Positions 1 to 4,458 of a stretch of 64,000 nt of DNA are shown here, one piece after another. Position 1 is the stretch's first letter. Every line of letters begins with the position of its first letter. The stretch spans positions 11,522 to 75,521 of IMG/VR virus record IMGVR_UViG_3300050019_000176; one strand, given 5' to 3'. The stretch is from a virus. The notes beneath the pieces are model-generated. The model worked only from the letters and a program-made list of their open reading frames with translations, did no database searches and was not told where the DNA came from. A program made the translations under genes and the position numbers.

Positions 1-38
1 TCGTAGGAGCAGCACCGTCACCAGACGATAAACCCGGC
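1..38 (-). tRNA. Partial tRNA (5' half), probable anticodon UAC (Val), truncated by window edge
   Basis: Minus strand GCCGGGT-TT-ATCGTC TGGT GACGGT-G-CTGCT CCTACGA: acceptor 5' strand, 6-bp D stem with 4-nt loop, start of anticodon arm. Confidence 0.55.
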
Positions 39-39
39 A

Positions 40-129
40 TGGTCCCCGGCCCAGGTGCCGACCCTGGATCTAGCTCCGATCTGGAGAAACGGTTATAGGC
101 CGTCTTGCGGCGCCGGCCGCCCACCGGGG
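40..129 (-). tRNA. Atypical tRNA with anticodon UAU (nominally Ile, reads AUA), long variable arm
   Basis: Acceptor CCCCGGT/GCCGGGG + ACCA; D arm GCGGC CGGC GCCGC; loop CC-TAT-AA; V arm CTCC..GGAG; T arm CCAGG GTCGGCA CCTGG. Confidence 0.75.
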
Positions 130-665
130 GAAGGTTGATCCTTCAATACAATCAAGCCATCATGGATCTCTCCGTGACAGTTAGCGCATGTGAGCACGCA
201 CTTGTCTAGTTCTTTTTTTATCCGAACCCAAGATGCCGTGACTCGGCTGATCGAAAAATCCTTTTGCGATTGGTCACTGTGGTGGAACCCTAATGAGCGC
301 AAGCACTTAGCATACCCGCAGAATTCGCACGCCCCTCCCTTGTATTCTACCGCCTTGAGCTTTAATCGCTTCCTCCACGCAGTTACCCCACGAACCGATC
401 TAGCTTTTGGATCGGAGGATTGTCTGCTCGCCACCCGCGCGTTATGGCGGCATTGATTGCTGCAATATCGGGAGCGCCTTGTAGAGGGGGAACCGCAGAC
501 TGCGCACTTCCCTTCCGGTTTCCGTTTTGGAAACTTCTTGTTATTGTACTTGGCGGCGCATGACTTATTGCAGAACTTCTTAATCCGAACATCCCGCGCA
601 GACTGCCCATCCATCGCCACAATCTTTCGTCGACATGATCGGCAGTAGTGTTGATTCGAAGCCAT
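93..665 (-). CDS. HNH endonuclease with N-terminal Zn-binding repeats
   Basis: CxxC / FCNKSC / YCSNQC motifs, then KGGACEFCG..LGFHH..ELDKCVLTCANCHGEIH; start MASNQH follows TGT-TAATAT-7nt; stop lies in the anticodon loop of the downstream tRNA. Confidence 0.88.
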   Translation of the reverse strand: MASNQHYCRSCRRKIVAMDGQSARDVRIKKFCNKSCAAKYNNKKFPKRKPEGKCAVCGSPSTRRSRYCSNQCRHNARVASRQSSDPKARSVRGVTAWRKRLKLKAVEYKGGACEFCGYAKCLRSLGFHHSDQSQKDFSISRVTASWVRIKKELDKCVLTCANCHGEIHDGLIVLKDQPSPGGRPAPQDGL

Positions 666-688
666 CAATAATATATTAACACGAAAAC

Positions 689-777
689 TGGCTGGCGGAA
701 GAGGATTCGAACCTCCATGCGGGATCACTCCACGGCAGATTAACAGTCTGCTGCCTTACCAGTTAGGCGATCCGCCA
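689..777 (-). tRNA. tRNA-Asn(GUU) with 18-nt variable arm
   Basis: Acceptor TGGCGGA/TCCGCCA, loop CT-GTT-AA, TTCGAAT T loop, CCA encoded. Confidence 0.92.
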
Positions 778-781
778 ATCT

Positions 782-857
782 TGGTGGGTCCAGCGGGGCT
801 CGAACCCGCACATCCCTGAGTAAGAATCAGGTACGCTGCCACTCGCGTCCTGGACCC
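782..857 (-). tRNA. tRNA-Lys(CUU)
   Basis: Cloverleaf, loop TT-CTT-AC, CCA. Confidence 0.9.
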
Positions 858-863
858 GAAACT

Positions 864-938
864 TGGTAGGGGTGACGCGAATTGAACACGCATCGAGAGA
901 TTGAAAGCCTCTCATCCTAACCATTAGACGACACCCCC
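864..938 (-). tRNA. tRNA-Glu(UUC)
   Basis: Loop CT-TTC-AA, CCA. Confidence 0.9.
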
Positions 939-939
939 A

Positions 940-1015
940 TGGCGTCCCCAGCCGGATTCGAACCGGCGATTTCTGGCGTGAGAAGCCAGCGTCCTTGCCG
1001 CTAGACGATGGGGAC
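940..1015 (-). tRNA. tRNA-Glu(CUC)
   Basis: Loop TT-CTC-AC, GGTTCGAATCC, CCA. Confidence 0.92.
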
Positions 1016-1020
1016 AAACT

Positions 1021-1095
1021 TGGCGCGGTGGACGGGTAACGATCCCGCTTCGTCTCCGTAGACAGCGGAGTGCATATCCTACCTGCCCCCACCGC
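1021..1095 (-). tRNA. tRNA-Asp(GUC)
   Basis: Loop CT-GTC-TA, G73, CCA. Confidence 0.88.
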
Positions 1096-1102
1096 GCAAA
1101 CT

Positions 1103-1138
1103 TGGTCGGCCCGCCGGGATTCGAACCCGGAGGGATAC
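1103..1138 (-). pseudogene. 3' half of interrupted tRNA-Arg(CCG)
   Basis: GTATCCCT-CCGGG TTCGAAT CCCGG-CGGGCCG-A-CCA; the acceptor strand pairs with the orphan 5' half at 1667-1714. Confidence 0.85.
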
Positions 1139-1139
1139 T

Positions 1140-1215
1140 TGGTGATCGTGGCTGGATTCTAACCAGCGACCTCTACCTTCGGAGGGCAGTGCTCTTTACG
1201 CTGAGCTACACGATC
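1140..1215 (-). tRNA. tRNA-Arg(CCG), intact copy inside the insertion
   Basis: Acceptor GATCGTG/CACGATC, loop CT-CCG-AA, T loop TTAGAAT, CCA. Confidence 0.88.
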
Positions 1216-1656
1216 AAGACCTAATACTGTAATCCATTTCCATCCACGCTCAAGAGCAGTCTTGATAGTGTGACACTTCGAACACCGAACATCACACTTG
1301 CTGATCTCTTCTTGCCGTCTGCGTTGACTCCACCCTTGCATATTCGAAACACTGGCGACCTTTTTCCCACGCACGTGATCGAATTGAAGAACGAGCGGGT
1401 TTGATTCACCACAATCTACACACGGGTGTTCACGAAAGAACGGCACCATTTCTGCGAAGAATGCTTCCATCCACTTGTCTCTCGAACGATCCGCCTTCAA
1501 GCGGTAGTATTCTTTGTTTCTCTGGTAATGATCCTTGTTATATGCCCTGTGGCATATTTTGCAGTCATCGGATCTTATGCCGCGGGATTTGTACTTGAAT
1601 GAAAACTCATCGACGTTCTGTTCTTTTCCGCAGCGACAACATGTTTTCTTAGTCAT
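1159..1656 (-). CDS. HNH endonuclease
   Basis: MTKKTCCRCG..DCKIC N-terminus; HPCVDCGESNPLVLQFDHVRG..EEISKCDVRCSKCH; start follows TGG-TATACT-7nt. Confidence 0.9.
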   Translation of the reverse strand: MTKKTCCRCGKEQNVDEFSFKYKSRGIRSDDCKICHRAYNKDHYQRNKEYYRLKADRSRDKWMEAFFAEMVPFFREHPCVDCGESNPLVLQFDHVRGKKVASVSNMQGWSQRRRQEEISKCDVRCSKCHTIKTALERGWKWITVLGLDRVAQRKEHCPPKVEVAG

Positions 1657-1666
1657 CCTCCGAAGT

Positions 1667-1714
1667 ATACCATCCTTCGGAGAGATGTGCCCTGTCCAGT
1701 TGAGCGACAGGCCG
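1667..1714 (-). pseudogene. 5' half of interrupted tRNA-Arg(CCG)
   Basis: CGGCCTG-TC-GCTC AACTGGACA GGGC-A-CATCT CTCCGAA GGATG-GTAT; no T arm follows. Confidence 0.85.
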
Positions 1715-1718
1715 AAAA

Positions 1719-1795
1719 TGGTACGCCCGCGAGGATTCGAACCCCGGTCTGATCGTTCGTAGCGATCTATCCTTTCCGGATTGGACGACGGGCGC
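1719..1795 (-). tRNA. tRNA-Arg(ACG)
   Basis: Loop CT-ACG-AA, CCA. Confidence 0.92.
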
Positions 1796-1803
1796 GCGAA
1801 AAA

Positions 1804-1886
1804 TGGTAAGCACCCACCCAGTGATTCCGACACTGGCTCTGTACCGACTCCCGCCGGTCGAGACTCCATGCCTCCCGTGGGTGCAT
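1804..1886 (-). ncRNA. tRNA-like RNA without a normal anticodon loop
   Basis: 8-bp acceptor-like stem GCACCCAC/GTGGGTGC, D-like arm, ACCGGC GGGA GTCGGT hairpin, 6-bp T-like arm, ends ACCA. Confidence 0.6.
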
Positions 1887-1895
1887 AAGCATAAA

Positions 1896-1971
1896 TGGCT
1901 GGCCGCCCAGGGTACGATCCTGGAACCTCTGCGTTCAGAGCGCAGCGCGCTGCCAATTGCGCCAGCGGCCA
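1896..1971 (-). tRNA. tRNA-Gln(CUG)
   Basis: Loop CT-CTG-AA, U1-A72, CCA. Confidence 0.92.
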
Positions 1972-1972
1972 A

Positions 1973-2046
1973 TGGCCGGGAGGGAGCGAATCGAACGCTC
2001 GAAGCTGGCTTCAAAGACCAGCGGCTTACCATTAACCTACCTCCCG
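1973..2046 (-). tRNA. tRNA-Gln(UUG)
   Basis: Loop CT-TTG-AA, CCA. Confidence 0.9.
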
Positions 2047-2049
2047 AAT

Positions 2050-2123
2050 TGGGGTGACCGATCGGTTCGACCCGACAACCTCCGGGGCCACAACCCGGCG
2101 CTCTACGTTTGAGCTACGGCCAC
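2050..2123 (-). tRNA. tRNA-His(GUG)
   Basis: Loop TT-GTG-GC, C73, CCA; atypical 6-nt T loop, no encoded G-1. Confidence 0.85.
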
Positions 2124-2126
2124 ACT

Positions 2127-2201
2127 TGGTGCCGGAAGCGGCGCTCGAATCCGCGTCACTGGCTTTTCAGACCAATGCTCTACCGTCTGAGCTATTCCGG
2201 C
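2127..2201 (-). tRNA. tRNA-Phe(GAA)
   Basis: Loop CT-GAA-AA, CCA. Confidence 0.9.
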
Positions 2202-2206
2202 GAAAT

Positions 2207-2286
2207 TGGTGGACCTCCAGAGAATTGAACTCTGCTGACTATCTTCCTTGCAAGGGAAGCGACCACCCCATGCAGTCTCGAGGCCC
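2207..2286 (-). tRNA. tRNA-Ala(UGC)
   Basis: Loop CT-TGC-AA, G3:U70 identity pair, 8-nt variable region, CCA. Confidence 0.92.
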
Positions 2287-2291
2287 AAAAT

Positions 2292-2364
2292 TGGTAGCGG
2301 GGGTCGGTGTTGATCCGACGCGGCTGGGTTTATGAGGCCAAGCTGTGAACCGTCTCTCCCCGCA
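2292..2364 (-). tRNA. tRNA-Met(CAU), initiator-like, weak anticodon stem
   Basis: Loop CT-CAT-AA, 1:72 mismatch (U:U), GCGGGG acceptor, CCA. Confidence 0.7.
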
Positions 2365-2372
2365 ATAAATTC

Positions 2373-2452
2373 TGGCATACAACCTCACGGCCCGGTATGC
2401 CGGCGGGTCGCGGCATGGACTGGAGTAGGGCTCACAGCGCCGCAGACGTCGA
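2373..2452 (-). ncRNA. Unassigned structured RNA within tRNA operon
   Basis: Two hairpins (GCGGCG..TGCCGC; GGCATAC..GGCC GTGA GGTT..GTATGCC) filling a tRNA-sized slot and ending in CCA. Confidence 0.4.
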
Positions 2453-2455
2453 ACT

Positions 2456-2529
2456 TGGTGCGTCCCCGAAGAGTTGAACTTCGATTGCTCCCCTATCGAG
2501 GGAGAGTCCTGCTATTGGACGAGGGGCGC
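2456..2529 (-). tRNA. tRNA-Ile(GAU)
   Basis: Loop TC-GAT-AG, CCA. Confidence 0.85.
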
Positions 2530-2530
2530 A

Positions 2531-2606
2531 TGGGGCCGGTGGCGGAACTCGAATCCGCGGATTCTTCCTTACCAAAGAAGCGGTGAACCATCCCACCTCC
2601 ACCGGC
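2531..2606 (-). tRNA. tRNA-Thr(GGU)
   Basis: Loop TT-GGT-AA, GCC acceptor start, CCA. Confidence 0.88.
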
Positions 2607-2611
2607 GAAAC

Positions 2612-2686
2612 TGGGGCCAGATCGGAGAATCGAACTCCGGTCACAGGGATACGAATCCTGCACTCTGCCGACTGAGCTAATCTGGC
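2612..2686 (-). tRNA. tRNA-Thr(CGU)
   Basis: Loop TT-CGT-AT, CCA. Confidence 0.9.
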
Positions 2687-2687
2687 A

Positions 2688-2762
2688 TGGAGCCGGGCGC
2701 CGAACTCGAAGCGGCCTCACTGACTTACAGGGCCAGCGCATCGCCATCTATGCTTGCCCGGC
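2688..2762 (-). tRNA. tRNA-Thr(UGU)
   Basis: Loop CC-TGT-AA, CCA. Confidence 0.88.
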
Positions 2763-2835
2763 TGGAGCGGATGGAGGCATCGAAGCCTCGTATCGACCTT
2801 GGCAAGGTCGCGCTCTACCATTGAGCTACACCCGC
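2763..2835 (-). tRNA. tRNA-Gly(GCC)
   Basis: Loop TT-GCC-AA, GCG start, U73, CCA. Confidence 0.92.
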
Positions 2836-2842
2836 AGAAACT

Positions 2843-2916
2843 TGGAGCGGACGGGGGTACTCGAAACCCCTTCTCTGGGTTGGAGGCCCAGGGCACACCC
2901 TATATACCACGCCCGC
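2843..2916 (-). tRNA. tRNA-Gly(UCC)
   Basis: Loop CC-TCC-AA, GCG start, U73, CCA. Confidence 0.9.
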
Positions 2917-2933
2917 CTTACTGCCTACACTCT

Positions 2934-2974
2934 GTTGTCAAAGACCCTGCCGCGCCTTCATGCCACTGCGCGGC
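2934..2974 (-). promoter_or_regulatory. boxB-like hairpin followed by boxA-like antitermination element
   Basis: GCCGCGC..GCGCGGC hairpin then GGTCTTTGACAAC, resembling rrn boxA (GCTCTTTAACAA). Confidence 0.65.
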
Positions 2975-2979
2975 GAACT

Positions 2980-3056
2980 TGGTCGGGGCGGCAAGATTCG
3001 AACTTGCGACCTTCTGGTCCCAGGCCAGACGGGTTAAACCACTTCCCTACGCCCCG
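2980..3056 (-). tRNA. tRNA-Pro(UGG)
   Basis: CGGGGCG acceptor, loop CC-TGG-GA, CCA; first gene of operon A. Confidence 0.92.
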
Positions 3057-3062
3057 AAAATC

Positions 3063-3091
3063 AAAAAGGCCCGAATCTTTCGATCCGAGCC
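3063..3091 (-). terminator. Intrinsic terminator (attenuator) between leader A and tRNA operon A
   Basis: GGCTCGGATC GAAA GATTCGGGCC followed by TTTTTGATTTT. Confidence 0.85.
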
Positions 3092-3120
3092 CACTGGAAA
3101 ACCGGAAATCCCAAGTGGGC

Positions 3121-3213
3121 TTACGGAGCATCGCGGGCGACTGGATTCATCGCCGGTGCGATGGGTTCCGTCCCCTGCTGCTTCCTTGTGCCGAAATGGA
3201 ATATGTATCTCAT
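3121..3213 (-). CDS. Leader peptide A, 30 aa: MRYIFHFGTRKQQGTEPIAPAMNPVARDAP
   Basis: ATG 10 nt downstream of TATACT; stop overlaps the antiterminator 5' strand; not reported as a separate ORF in the track. Confidence 0.75.
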   Translation of the reverse strand: MRYIFHFGTRKQQGTEPIAPAMNPVARDAP

Positions 3214-3250
3214 GTACGATTTCAGTATATCACGGTTTCGCCGAATGCAA
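3214..3250 (-). promoter_or_regulatory. sigma70-type promoter of tRNA operon A
   Basis: TTGCAT-15nt-TATACT with extended TG; TATACTGAAATCGTA is identical to the operon B promoter. Confidence 0.8.
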
Positions 3251-3258
3251 GCACTTTT

Positions 3259-3343
3259 TGGCGGAAGATGGCCGAATCGAACGACTCCGCTTGCGCGGAC
3301 CCCGGAATTCGAACCCGGTTGCCCACCATGGGCGGCATCTTCC
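3259..3343 (-). tRNA. tRNA-Ser(CGA), 8/4 fold
   Basis: GGAAGATG/CATCTTCC 8-bp acceptor, 4-bp T stem, long V arm, loop TT-CGA-AT. Confidence 0.88.
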
Positions 3344-3347
3344 GAAC

Positions 3348-3432
3348 TGGCGGAGAGCACCAGAGTCGAACTGGCACCCTTTCGGGGCTCCGGTTTTCCA
3401 GGCCGGCCGGGATCCACATCCCCGTACTCTCC
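3348..3432 (-). tRNA. tRNA-Ser(GGA), 8/4 fold
   Basis: GGAGAGTA/TGCTCTCC, T stem CCAG/CTGG, long V arm, loop CT-GGA-AA. Confidence 0.88.
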
Positions 3433-3439
3433 AAACTTA

Positions 3440-3524
3440 TGGCCGCGGGCGAAGGAATCGAACCCTCATCCCGAAGGAGCGCCAGTACTCAAGACTGGTG
3501 GCGGACCATCCGCCCGCGCCCGCG
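3440..3524 (-). tRNA. tRNA-Ser(UGA), 8/4 fold
   Basis: CGCGGGCG/CGCCCGCG, T stem AGGG/CCTT, long V arm, loop CT-TGA-GT, G73. Confidence 0.82.
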
Positions 3525-3525
3525 G

Positions 3526-3599
3526 TGGAATGGGGATCGGGAATCGAACCCGACATAACAGCTTTGCAGGCTGCCCTCTAGCCGATTGAGTTTCCCCAC
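3526..3599 (-). tRNA. tRNA-Cys(GCA)
   Basis: Loop CT-GCA-AA, U73, CCA. Confidence 0.9.
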
Positions 3600-3600
3600 G

Positions 3601-3671
3601 CACCCCAGCGACGATTCGAACGCCGAAAATCCGCTTTGGAGACGGACCACCTCACCATCGGTAACCGGGGC
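3601..3671 (-). tRNA. tRNA-Trp(CCA), no encoded CCA end
   Basis: Loop CT-CCA-AA, G73, abuts tRNA-Cys. Confidence 0.85.
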
Positions 3672-3676
3672 AAACT

Positions 3677-3760
3677 TGGTAGGCTCGGTGGGATTCGAAC
3701 CCACAGGGGAAAACGCTCTTGAGGCGTTTGGTTGTGCCAATTCACCTTATCCACGAGCCT
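3677..3760 (-). tRNA. tRNA-Leu(CAA), short variable region, enlarged D loop
   Basis: Loop CT-CAA-GA, A73, CCA. Confidence 0.85.
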
Positions 3761-3766
3761 AAAACT

Positions 3767-3843
3767 TGGTGCGCCGCCCGAGATTCGAACTCGGAAAAGT
3801 CAGGGCCTAAACCTGATGGATTTGCCAATTTTCCTAGCGGCGC
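3767..3843 (-). tRNA. tRNA-Leu(UAG), short variable region
   Basis: Loop TT-TAG-GC, A73, CCA. Confidence 0.88.
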
Positions 3844-3849
3844 ATAACT

Positions 3850-3937
3850 TGGTGAGTGCGGATGGATTTGAACCACCGTGGCCCCGAAGGACAGAAGGGT
3901 TACAGCCTTCCCGTTTCAGCCGCTCACGCACGCACTC
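3850..3937 (-). tRNA. tRNA-Tyr(GUA)
   Basis: Loop CT-GTA-AC, long V arm, CCA. Confidence 0.92.
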
Positions 3938-3938
3938 A

Positions 3939-3950
3939 TTGTCAAAGATC
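3939..3950 (-). promoter_or_regulatory. boxA-like element
   Basis: GATCTTTGACAA directly after the first tRNA of operon B. Confidence 0.65.
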
Positions 3951-3952
3951 TT

Positions 3953-4041
3953 TGGCGGAGAGCCGGCGACTCGAACGCCGGAGTCCCGAAGGAAGCACGC
4001 GTTTAGCAGACGCGCCGGACGGCCCACTGTCCATGCTCTCC
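3953..4041 (-). tRNA. tRNA-Ser(GCU)
   Basis: GGAGAGC acceptor, loop CT-GCT-AA, long V arm, CCA; first gene of operon B. Confidence 0.92.
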
Positions 4042-4054
4042 GAAACCTGGGCTC

Positions 4055-4153
4055 CTATAAACTCGACAGGGATGATAGGTGCCCGGACGGACACCACAAA
4101 TACTCGGCGGAGCGCCGATAGGAAAGAAATCCGCGATTGGAATTCTTGTGCAT
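4055..4153 (-). CDS. Leader peptide B, 32 aa: MHKNSNRGFLSYRRSAEYLWCPSGHLSSLSSL
   Basis: ATG 9 nt downstream of TATACT and overlapping the upstream stop (TAATG); TAG 13 nt before tRNA-Ser. Confidence 0.75.
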   Translation of the reverse strand: MHKNSNRGFLSYRRSAEYLWCPSGHLSSLSSL

Positions 4154-4458
4154 TACGATTTCAGTATAGCACGGGTACGTTCGGTGTCAAGTGGTATACG
4201 TTTCGAGGCATGGATCGGCGCAAACATGCTTCGCATCCTGCGGCGCTCCTCGGCCCACTTCGGGTCCGCCAGTTCCCGGCGCCGGTCGCGTTCATTCGAT
4301 ATTTCTCCCAACCGATAGAGAGCCTGTCCCTCCCACGAACTTTCTCCGTGATCATCTTCATCCAGCATGCCGACGCCGGCGTCGAGCAATTCCTGTTCCA
4401 GGATATAGAGTTCTGCATCCGTAAAACTTGTGACTTTTGCTTGGTAGAAGTTAGGCAT
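4153..4458 (-). CDS. Hypothetical protein
   Basis: ORF MPNFYQAK.., acidic/helical; stop overlaps leader B ATG. Confidence 0.6.
   Translation of the reverse strand: MPNFYQAKVTSFTDAELYILEQELLDAGVGMLDEDDHGESSWEGQALYRLGEISNERDRRRELADPKWAEERRRMRSMFAPIHASKRIPLDTERTRAILKS
4154..4190 (-). promoter_or_regulatory. sigma70 consensus promoter of tRNA operon B
   Basis: TTGACA-16nt-TATACT with extended TG. Confidence 0.88.

Follow-up and report, generated by a model that had tools for sequence, protein, structure and literature searches.

A candidate leader-peptide attenuator at the head of a large tRNA gene block in a phage contig

The stretch of DNA analysed here, referred to as the window, comprises 64,000 nucleotides (nt), bases 11522-75521 of the 75.5-kilobase (kb) IMG/VR virus contig IMGVR_UViG_3300050019_000176. 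The minus strand of this phage contig carries about 33 transfer RNA (tRNA) genes in two blocks, each headed by a promoter and a short open reading frame (ORF). The whole array reads, in order, promoter P_B, ORF B, nine proximal tRNA genes, promoter P_A, ORF A, a terminator and at least 22 distal tRNA genes. The subject of this study is the leader between P_A and the distal block, where the terminator overlaps an alternative hairpin and the codons of ORF A correspond to the tRNA genes that follow. Positions refer to the window; the promoters, the leader elements and the supported tRNA genes all lie on the minus strand.

Organization of the two leader regions

Promoter P_A (3224..3250) consists of the -35 element TTGCAT (3250..3245), a 15-nt spacer and the extended -10 element TGaTATACT (3232..3224). 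It was missed by the promoter scanner because the scanner accepts spacers of 16-18 nt only. ORF A (3121..3213) opens with an ATG at 3213..3211, 10 nt past the -10 element, and runs for 30 codons to a TAA at 3123..3121, encoding the peptide MRYIFHFGTRKQQGTEPIAPAMNPVARDAP. A Shine-Dalgarno sequence is absent and the start would be leaderless or nearly so. From P_A it is 150 nt to a terminator that abuts the first distal tRNA gene, with no space for a further promoter between the two.

The upstream unit begins in a similar way. Promoter P_B (4163..4190) has TTGACA, a 16-nt spacer and TGcTATACT, agrees with the consensus at 11 of 12 positions in addition to the TG, and is the top sigma-70-like site within the first 6 kb in the promoter scan. 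ORF B (4055..4153) has 32 codons, encodes the peptide MHKNSNRGFLSYRRSAEYLWCPSGHLSSLSSL and ends 13 nt before tRNA-Ser(GCU). Its ATG lies 9 nt past the -10 element of P_B and overlaps the TAA of an upstream gene (TAATG), so that ORF B could also be translated by coupling. This upstream gene (4153-4455, minus strand) encodes 101 amino acids, has no assigned function and contains P_B within the last 40 nt of its 3' end. It has one homologue, 51% identical, encoded on a 1.65-kb contig of the European Nucleotide Archive (ENA), and is therefore taken to be a real gene.

The 15-mer TATACTGAAATCGTA, located at 3229..3215 in P_A, is identical in P_B. Exactly two copies are present in the window, against 0.02 expected, and both head a tRNA block; no further copy was found in the window even when two mismatches were allowed. 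The 10-mer TCTTTGACAA likewise has only two exact copies in the window (2935..2944 and 3939..3948, minus strand), one just after tRNA-Pro and the other just after tRNA-Ser(GCU), which are the first tRNA genes of the two units.

Alternative pairings in the leader RNA

The hairpins, their energies and their geometry were read directly from the sequence. Hairpin 1:2 (3123..3171) joins ACGGA to UCCGU, CAUCGC to GCGAUG and GGCGA to UCGCC (5+6+5 base pairs (bp), -24.8 kcal/mol) and lies over codons 15-30 of ORF A. The antiterminator 2:3 (3084..3127), with its 5' arm at 3127..3109 and its 3' arm at 3099..3084, has 16 bp and two bulges (-22.8 kcal/mol). Its pairing is AGCCCACU/AGUGGGCU; the 5' arm covers the last codon of ORF A and the stop codon, the core arm AGCCCACU begins at the last A of the UAA, and the 3' arm takes nine nt of the 5' arm of the terminator. 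The intrinsic terminator 3:4 (3057..3092) has an 11-bp stem (3092..3067) with a GAAA loop (-17.8 kcal/mol) and the U-tract UUUUUGAUUUU, which reaches position 3057; tRNA-Pro starts at 3056. This terminator ranks third among the terminator-like sites of the whole 75.5-kb contig. Antiterminator and terminator are mutually exclusive, and the antiterminator is the stronger of the two.

The leader region is more stable than shuffled sequences (fold z -2.8). The 80 nt upstream together with the 5' arm of the terminator fold at -42.7 kcal/mol, compared with -28.8 +/- 3.4 kcal/mol in shuffles. An antiterminator as good as the one found was matched in 0.4% of dinucleotide shuffles when 40 nt upstream were used and in 4.6% when 50 nt were used. 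Comparison of the leader (3057..3258) with the Rfam families, the T-box included, gave no match at E up to 1.

In folds of the nascent transcript constrained by a 30-nt ribosome footprint, the antiterminator was free to form or had a slight advantage while the A site was at codons 4-17. With the A site anywhere from codon 27 to the stop, the 2:3 arm was covered, the antiterminator was impossible and the terminator alone remained. The core of the 5' arm of 2:3 starts with the final base of the stop codon, so that a ribosome terminating there would keep the antiterminator from forming. The 2:3 hairpin is complete before the 3' arm of the terminator has been transcribed, and the order of folding therefore favours read-through unless a ribosome is at the end of the ORF.

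A first-pass annotation of this DNA had described the leader as an attenuator with alternating 1:2, 2:3 and 3:4 hairpins, and every sequence feature in that description was recovered at the positions it gave. The terminator with its GAAA loop and U-tract before tRNA-Pro and the 1:2 hairpin over the second half of the ORF (3171..3123, codons 15-30) are where it had placed them. The antiterminator over the last codon and stop is also present, withdrawing nine nt of the terminator 5' arm and not the eight given earlier. The suggestion that a ribosome at the stop masks segment 2 agrees with the loss of the antiterminator from A-site codon 27 onwards when the footprint check was run. The scheme as a whole is supported in part; the terminator is indeed overlapped by a stronger hairpin, and the picture departs from it at 1:2, which does not exclude the 2:3 core.

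The same anatomy would suit a stand-alone gene for a structured small RNA (sRNA) of about 155 nt, or a fixed, leaky terminator, with the distal tRNAs supplied by constant partial read-through from P_A and P_B and the ORF being incidental. Stable hairpins bounded by a promoter and, 150 nt further on, a strong intrinsic terminator are the usual make-up of bacterial or phage sRNA genes, and the leader is, as such genes are, a structured RNA of 50-300 nt bounded by its own promoter and terminator. An attenuator fits this arrangement equally well, and it is the codon evidence alone that argues against an sRNA on this point. The explanation has to leave aside the position of the stop codon exactly at the start of the antiterminator arm, and the stretch matches no Rfam family. 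We regard it as rather unlikely, if still a serious competitor to the attenuator.

Codon content of the leader ORFs

ORF A and ORF B each reflect, in their codons, the tRNA block that follows them. This correspondence between codons and tRNA genes was observed directly, with codons assigned to tRNAs by standard wobble rules and with only those tRNAs counted that were supported by default ARAGORN or by Rfam. Among the 29 codons of ORF A after the ATG, 26 are distinct. All four Ala codons occur once each, together with CCC/CCG/CCA, AGA/AGG/CGC, AUA/AUC, ACA/ACG and GGC/GGG, and Ser, Leu, Trp and Cys are absent from the peptide. The codons that the phage uses least (AGA, AUA, CAU, AGG and ACA) all fall within codons 2-10 of ORF A, where a delay would hold the ribosome at a distance from the switch.

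Cognate codons for 19 of the 22 distal tRNAs are present in ORF A (null mean 12.6, p 0.0015), as against one of the nine proximal tRNAs (null mean 4.0). The single proximal-type codon has p 0.03, and the joint probability for ORF A is 1.5e-4. ORF B shows the reverse pattern, with cognate codons for all nine proximal tRNAs (null mean 4.2, p 6e-4) and for 11 of the 22 distal ones (null mean 13.0). Proximal-type codons make up 15 of its 31 codons compared with 17% in the genes of the phage (p 5e-5). The coverage is specific to the reading frame, the other two frames of each region giving ordinary values. The diversity of the codons had been pointed out in the earlier annotation, and its codon lists were correct; the match of each ORF to its own block is new here and strengthens that annotation's interpretation.

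Spurious ATG ORFs of the same genome provide a further comparison: none of 481 equalled the coverage of ORF A and two equalled that of ORF B, probably counting ORF B itself. Under the strictest null, dinucleotide shuffles of each ORF that were kept open, p was 0.012-0.028 for ORF A and 0.003-0.012 for ORF B; this null strips any signal carried by composition. Colinearity between the codons of ORF B and the gene order is modest and is regarded as a curiosity; it amounts to the Y-L-W-C run and to 7 for the longest increasing subsequence (p ~0.024 each). Within the Tyr-Leu-Trp-Cys run of ORF B, the cognate of TTG is missing from the ARAGORN list, and a partial Rfam match located between Leu(UAG) and Trp has the anticodon CAA. 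The correspondence of this TTG with Leu(CAA) is retrospective, the partial match having predated the reading of the alignment.

The frame-specific matches of ORF A to the distal block and of ORF B to the proximal block are left unexplained by an sRNA gene or a leaky terminator. They could in principle be coincidental, as could the alternative pairings, if a duplicated promoter fragment happens to lie next to the terminator of the proximal block. The two promoter regions do resemble a duplication extending into the final codons of the upstream gene (both sites encode ILKS), GC-rich RNA readily gives alternative hairpins, and some of the statistics were framed after the data had been seen. Set against this is the coincidence of several independent oddities: p 0.004 for the 2:3 pairing, 0.0015 and 6e-4 for the coverage, and the paired copies of the 15-mer and the 10-mer at equivalent positions. 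A terminator after P_A would also defeat P_A unless it were conditional. Chance is in our judgement a very improbable explanation of the leader.

Proposed mechanism

We infer from these elements where transcription would start, that ORF A would be translated, where transcription would terminate and in which direction control would run. In the attenuator that we propose, RNA polymerase would start at P_A, 1-4 nt ahead of the ATG, and the 30-codon ORF would be read as a leaderless or nearly leaderless message. When decoding is fast, the ribosome would be at the last codons or the UAA while segments 3 and 4 are transcribed, covering the antiterminator arm AGCCCACU. With this arm covered the 11-bp terminator would form, and transcription would stop at 3063-3057, directly before tRNA-Pro. 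A ribosome that is slow or stalled at any of the diverse codons would allow 2:3 to form first, removing GGGCUCGGA from the terminator, and the polymerase would read through into the tRNA genes. The switch would depend mainly on whether the ribosome covers the start of the 2:3 arm. Since ORF A samples codons for nearly all of the tRNAs behind the terminator, the switch would report the supply of those tRNAs. The outcome would be feedback as phage tRNAs accumulate, or induction upon depletion of host tRNAs.

That the leader is a leader-peptide (ribosome-mediated) transcription attenuator gating at least 22 distal phage tRNA genes is a reading for which we see the case as evenly poised. To judge from the sequence, the phage probably gauges the speed of decoding to set its output of tRNA.

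Leader B follows the same codon logic for the proximal block. It was considered as an attenuator and rejected, its only hairpin having 6 bp and a poor U-tract. ORF B might govern access for Rho or affect processing of the first tRNA, or have no output at all. A wider and more tentative proposal, which we would sooner doubt than accept, is that two 'pangram' leaders written in the codons of their own sub-arrays gauge decoding capacity, in real time, for almost the whole genetic code. They would form an autonomous tRNA homeostat that doubles as a defence sensor, switching tRNA transcription on at times when host tRNAs run short or are cleaved by anticodon nucleases and off again after the pool has been filled by phage tRNAs, and would belong to a widespread undescribed class of attenuators in phage tRNA arrays.

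Several observations weigh against attenuation. The 1:2 hairpin shares only UCCG(U), 4-5 nt, with 2:3 and is not a classical anti-antiterminator. With the overlap so limited, the 12-bp core of 2:3 can coexist with 1:2 (at -42.7 kcal/mol for the two together), and 1:2 looks in these folds more like a pause or timing hairpin. As long as nothing covers the 2:3 arm, the terminator and antiterminator states lie no more than 2.5 kcal/mol apart at equilibrium. The argument for a switch therefore rests on the order of folding, and for the same reason the untranslated state is more likely to be read-through or mixed than 'super-attenuated'; untranslated transcripts, for example those from P_B, would probably be partly read through. 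ORF A lacks a Shine-Dalgarno sequence and the ATGs lie 9-10 nt after the -10 elements, which is further than in typical leaderless genes, while the HNH genes within the array do have GGAGG. Open frames are common here, with 60% and 41% of shuffles staying open. The ATC, GTC, GCC, GCT and CCC codons of ORF A and its second ATG have no firmly assigned phage tRNA. The test of the proximal and distal partition was framed after the peptides had been seen, and the nominal p-values therefore somewhat overstate the case, even though just two promoter-proximal ORFs came into question for it. ORF B has the codon signal and no credible terminator: the one candidate is a weak hairpin of 6 bp within the ORF, with a poor U-tract. 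The collections searched for relatives (viral, metagenome, genome and phage) gave none with this leader. Three of these points, namely the missing Shine-Dalgarno sequence, the frequency of open frames in a GC-rich stretch and the near-isoenergetic states, which suit a fixed partial terminator, also speak for the sRNA gene or leaky terminator described above.

A further explanation starts from the 10-mer TCTTTGACAA, which follows the first tRNA gene of each unit and presumably resembles the boxA antitermination motif of rrn operons. The terminator might block transcription early, and a phage or host factor might later permit passage, either an antitermination complex at the boxA-like TCTTTGACAA or an RNA-binding protein stabilising 2:3; the ORF would then have no role. 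Phages commonly time gene expression through antitermination. The 15-mer shared by the promoters overlaps the -10 element and the start region, and the operator of the Anabaena tRNA operon is equally placed (PMC8421152). As to the opposing evidence, the boxA-like motif is downstream of the terminator and therefore cannot help polymerase past it, no candidate regulator was found, most genes of the contig matching no family, and the codon mirroring is left unexplained. Such a timed gate appears improbable. Under the attenuator reading, a processive antitermination complex may be loaded at TCTTTGACAA after polymerase has passed the leader checkpoint.

The tRNA genes and their surroundings

The phage contig has 58.5% GC, is about 77% complete and is present in a peat metagenome run. 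It encodes a portal protein of the P22 type as well as tail-fibre proteins, and the majority of its genes lack a family match. Default ARAGORN found 27 tRNA genes in the window and three just past the window start. The distal block (40..3056; ARAGORN), behind the terminator, has the order Pro, Gly x2, Thr x3, a 74-nt tRNA, Ala, Phe, His, Gln x2, Arg x2, Asp, Glu x2, Lys, Asn and Ile-UAU; past the start of the window it goes on with Lys-UUU, Arg-CCU and Arg-UCU. Two HNH endonuclease genes are interspersed in it. The proximal block (3259..4041) consists of Ser-GCU, Tyr, Leu-UAG, Leu-CAA-like, Trp, Cys, Ser-UGA, Ser-GGA and Ser-CGA.

Several of the tRNA or tRNA-like genes are non-canonical (2691-2762, ~3677-3760, 2456-2529 and 1810-1882) and are missed or mislabelled by default ARAGORN. 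A tRNA-Thr(UGU) at 2691..2762 (minus strand), with C at position 33, was added by Rfam (40.2 bits). The Leu(CAA)-like tRNA at ~3677..3760 (minus strand), missed by default ARAGORN, matches the Rfam tRNA model with 27.8 bits (E 2e-4) and has the anticodon loop CUCAAGA. The 74-nt gene at 2456..2529 (minus strand), labelled Ser(CGA) by ARAGORN, falls short of the length of a bacterial serine tRNA; with a one-base shift it may be readable as Ile(GAU) with C33, and it was excluded from the supported set. A 'tRNA-Met' at 2292-2364, given by ARAGORN at a relaxed threshold, was without Rfam support and was dropped from that set. At 1810-1882 (minus strand) there is a cloverleaf-like RNA whose anticodon is not clear. 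Phage tRNAs have been proposed to evade anticodon nucleases (PMC10264068), and the odd anticodon loops seen here are consistent with that idea.

Contigs of two peat runs (X2 and X5) connect position 1131 to 1671 and omit 539 bases with an HNH gene. Relatives without the HNH insertion beside tRNA-Arg therefore exist.

Searches for relatives

Among viral contigs the promoter 15-mer gave 88 matches, which were read as chance, none of them heading a comparable tRNA array. A pattern from the T-arm of tRNA-Pro gave 120 generic matches, and a local blastn of these matches found neither leader. The portal protein and the 101-amino-acid neighbour gene, used singly or as an alignment, had no match in viral or metagenome contigs. 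A blastn against 50,697 phage records gave matches to single tRNAs only, the 3' end of Ser-CGA as query gave zero matches, and a scan of genome contigs gave one chance match, inside a coding region. A search of metagenomes with an 18-base promoter motif, GTGnTATACTGAAATCGTA, yielded 18 matches, several of them like ordinary extended -10 promoters and none near a tRNA.

The motif GTGnTATACTGAAATCGTA recurs in unrelated soil and water metagenome contigs (L218, L220, L222, L227, L228 and L231), often with TTGAC at the correct -35 distance; L220 and L228 share the next ~20 nt as well. It may be a common strong promoter and initial transcribed sequence of some bacterial group, and as such a possible clue to the host.

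Among the sequencing runs listed as containing this DNA there is no RNA run. Contigs from four peat or lake DNA runs gave almost no coverage of 3081-3300. The contig of one relative matches the Ser tRNAs at 3255-3505 (33 differences, 1 gap) and then continues with unlike sequence where P_A lies. An array reached through a D-loop motif of tRNA-Pro (L212/L216) was rejected as a relative, having an ordinary short leader with no mini-ORF. It is a 21-tRNA array (L216; IMGVR_UViG_3300025929_000061, 1-2500, minus strand) with a plain TTGACA/TAAAGT promoter and a leader of ~26 nt without ORF or terminator. A cassette of the kind described here is therefore not universal among phage tRNA arrays.

Comparison with known systems

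The same design recurs in an unrelated, cultivable phage, the Caulobacter phage phiCbK (JX100813, 47000-53000). In the annotation by its depositors, a rho-independent terminator stands immediately ahead of each of three tRNA blocks, and one block is also preceded by gp083, a gene for a hypothetical protein of 45 amino acids. Each of the three blocks is preceded by a promoter-like site, a mini-ORF and a terminator, two of the mini-ORFs being unannotated. The codons of gp083 cover nine of the nine tRNAs of its own block (21 of 44 codons, p 7.5e-5) and one of the seven of the next block. The third mini-ORF covers seven of seven in its own block (p 0.03) and three of nine in the other; for the first, before Glu and Asp, the match does not reach significance. 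Pairing with the 5' arm of the respective terminator is possible in the second and third leaders. Promoter-like boxes are clear in the first and third cassettes, and there the ATG is a few nt past the -10-like box, as it is here.

The likeness to phiCbK thus lies in the order of promoter, mini-ORF, terminator and tRNA block and in codons that cover the block behind them and few of the others. The differences are that phage and sequences are unrelated and the promoters are of another type, that one terminator is 130 nt ahead of its block, and that the phiCbK blocks hold 2-9 tRNAs compared with at least 22 here. An sRNA gene or leaky terminator leaves the recurrence of the design with codon-matched mini-ORFs unexplained. 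Its presence in unrelated phages suggests convergent evolution and a class missed by annotation pipelines. No published account of the phiCbK cassettes as attenuators was found, and full-text literature searches gave no account of leader-peptide attenuation of tRNA genes.

Why phages have tRNA genes at all and when they make use of them has been debated for some 50 years (PMC10264068); recent work shows infection being rescued by phage tRNAs where the defences of the host cleave tRNAs (PMC11464382, PMC11555353). If the attenuator reading is true, phages make tRNAs on demand with the ribosome as sensor, and textbook attenuation extends from amino-acid operons to tRNA genes. The leader would offer a testable read-out of the tRNAs that are limiting during infection, and the cassette could be put to use in compact form as a synthetic sensor for decoding capacity.

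In Anabaena sp. PCC 7120 the trn operon is a long tRNA array that is induced by stress (PMC8421152, PMC10272220). It resembles the phage array in being accessory, in having its expression raised when translation is impaired and in the aim of providing more tRNA. It differs in that control is exerted by the repressor TrcR at direct repeats over the -10 element and the start site (PMC8421152, PMC10272220); leader peptide, attenuation and terminator are unmentioned in these two papers. T-box riboswitches share with the leader a terminator/antiterminator switch that reports the status of tRNA. Unlike the leader, they bind uncharged tRNA directly, without translation, and control synthetase and amino-acid genes.

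The closest parallel in architecture is provided by the leader-peptide attenuators of enterobacteria, such as trpL, hisL, leuL and pheL and the multivalent thrL and ilvL, which sense several amino acids. Common to these and to the phage leader are a promoter-proximal short ORF, overlapping 1:2, 2:3 and 3:4 hairpins of which 3:4 is an intrinsic terminator, a stop codon beside segment 2, and codons that match what the operon supplies. With the stop in this position, a terminating ribosome would favour the terminator and a lagging one the antiterminator. The phage leader, known from its sequence alone, differs in being phage-encoded and in regulating tRNA genes instead of biosynthetic enzymes. 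It has a near-complete sample of ~19 tRNA species and no runs of single codons, it has no Shine-Dalgarno sequence and a likely leaderless start, and its 1:2 hairpin hardly competes with 2:3. What is proposed is a known mechanism, attenuation, with a new target and a new sensing logic.

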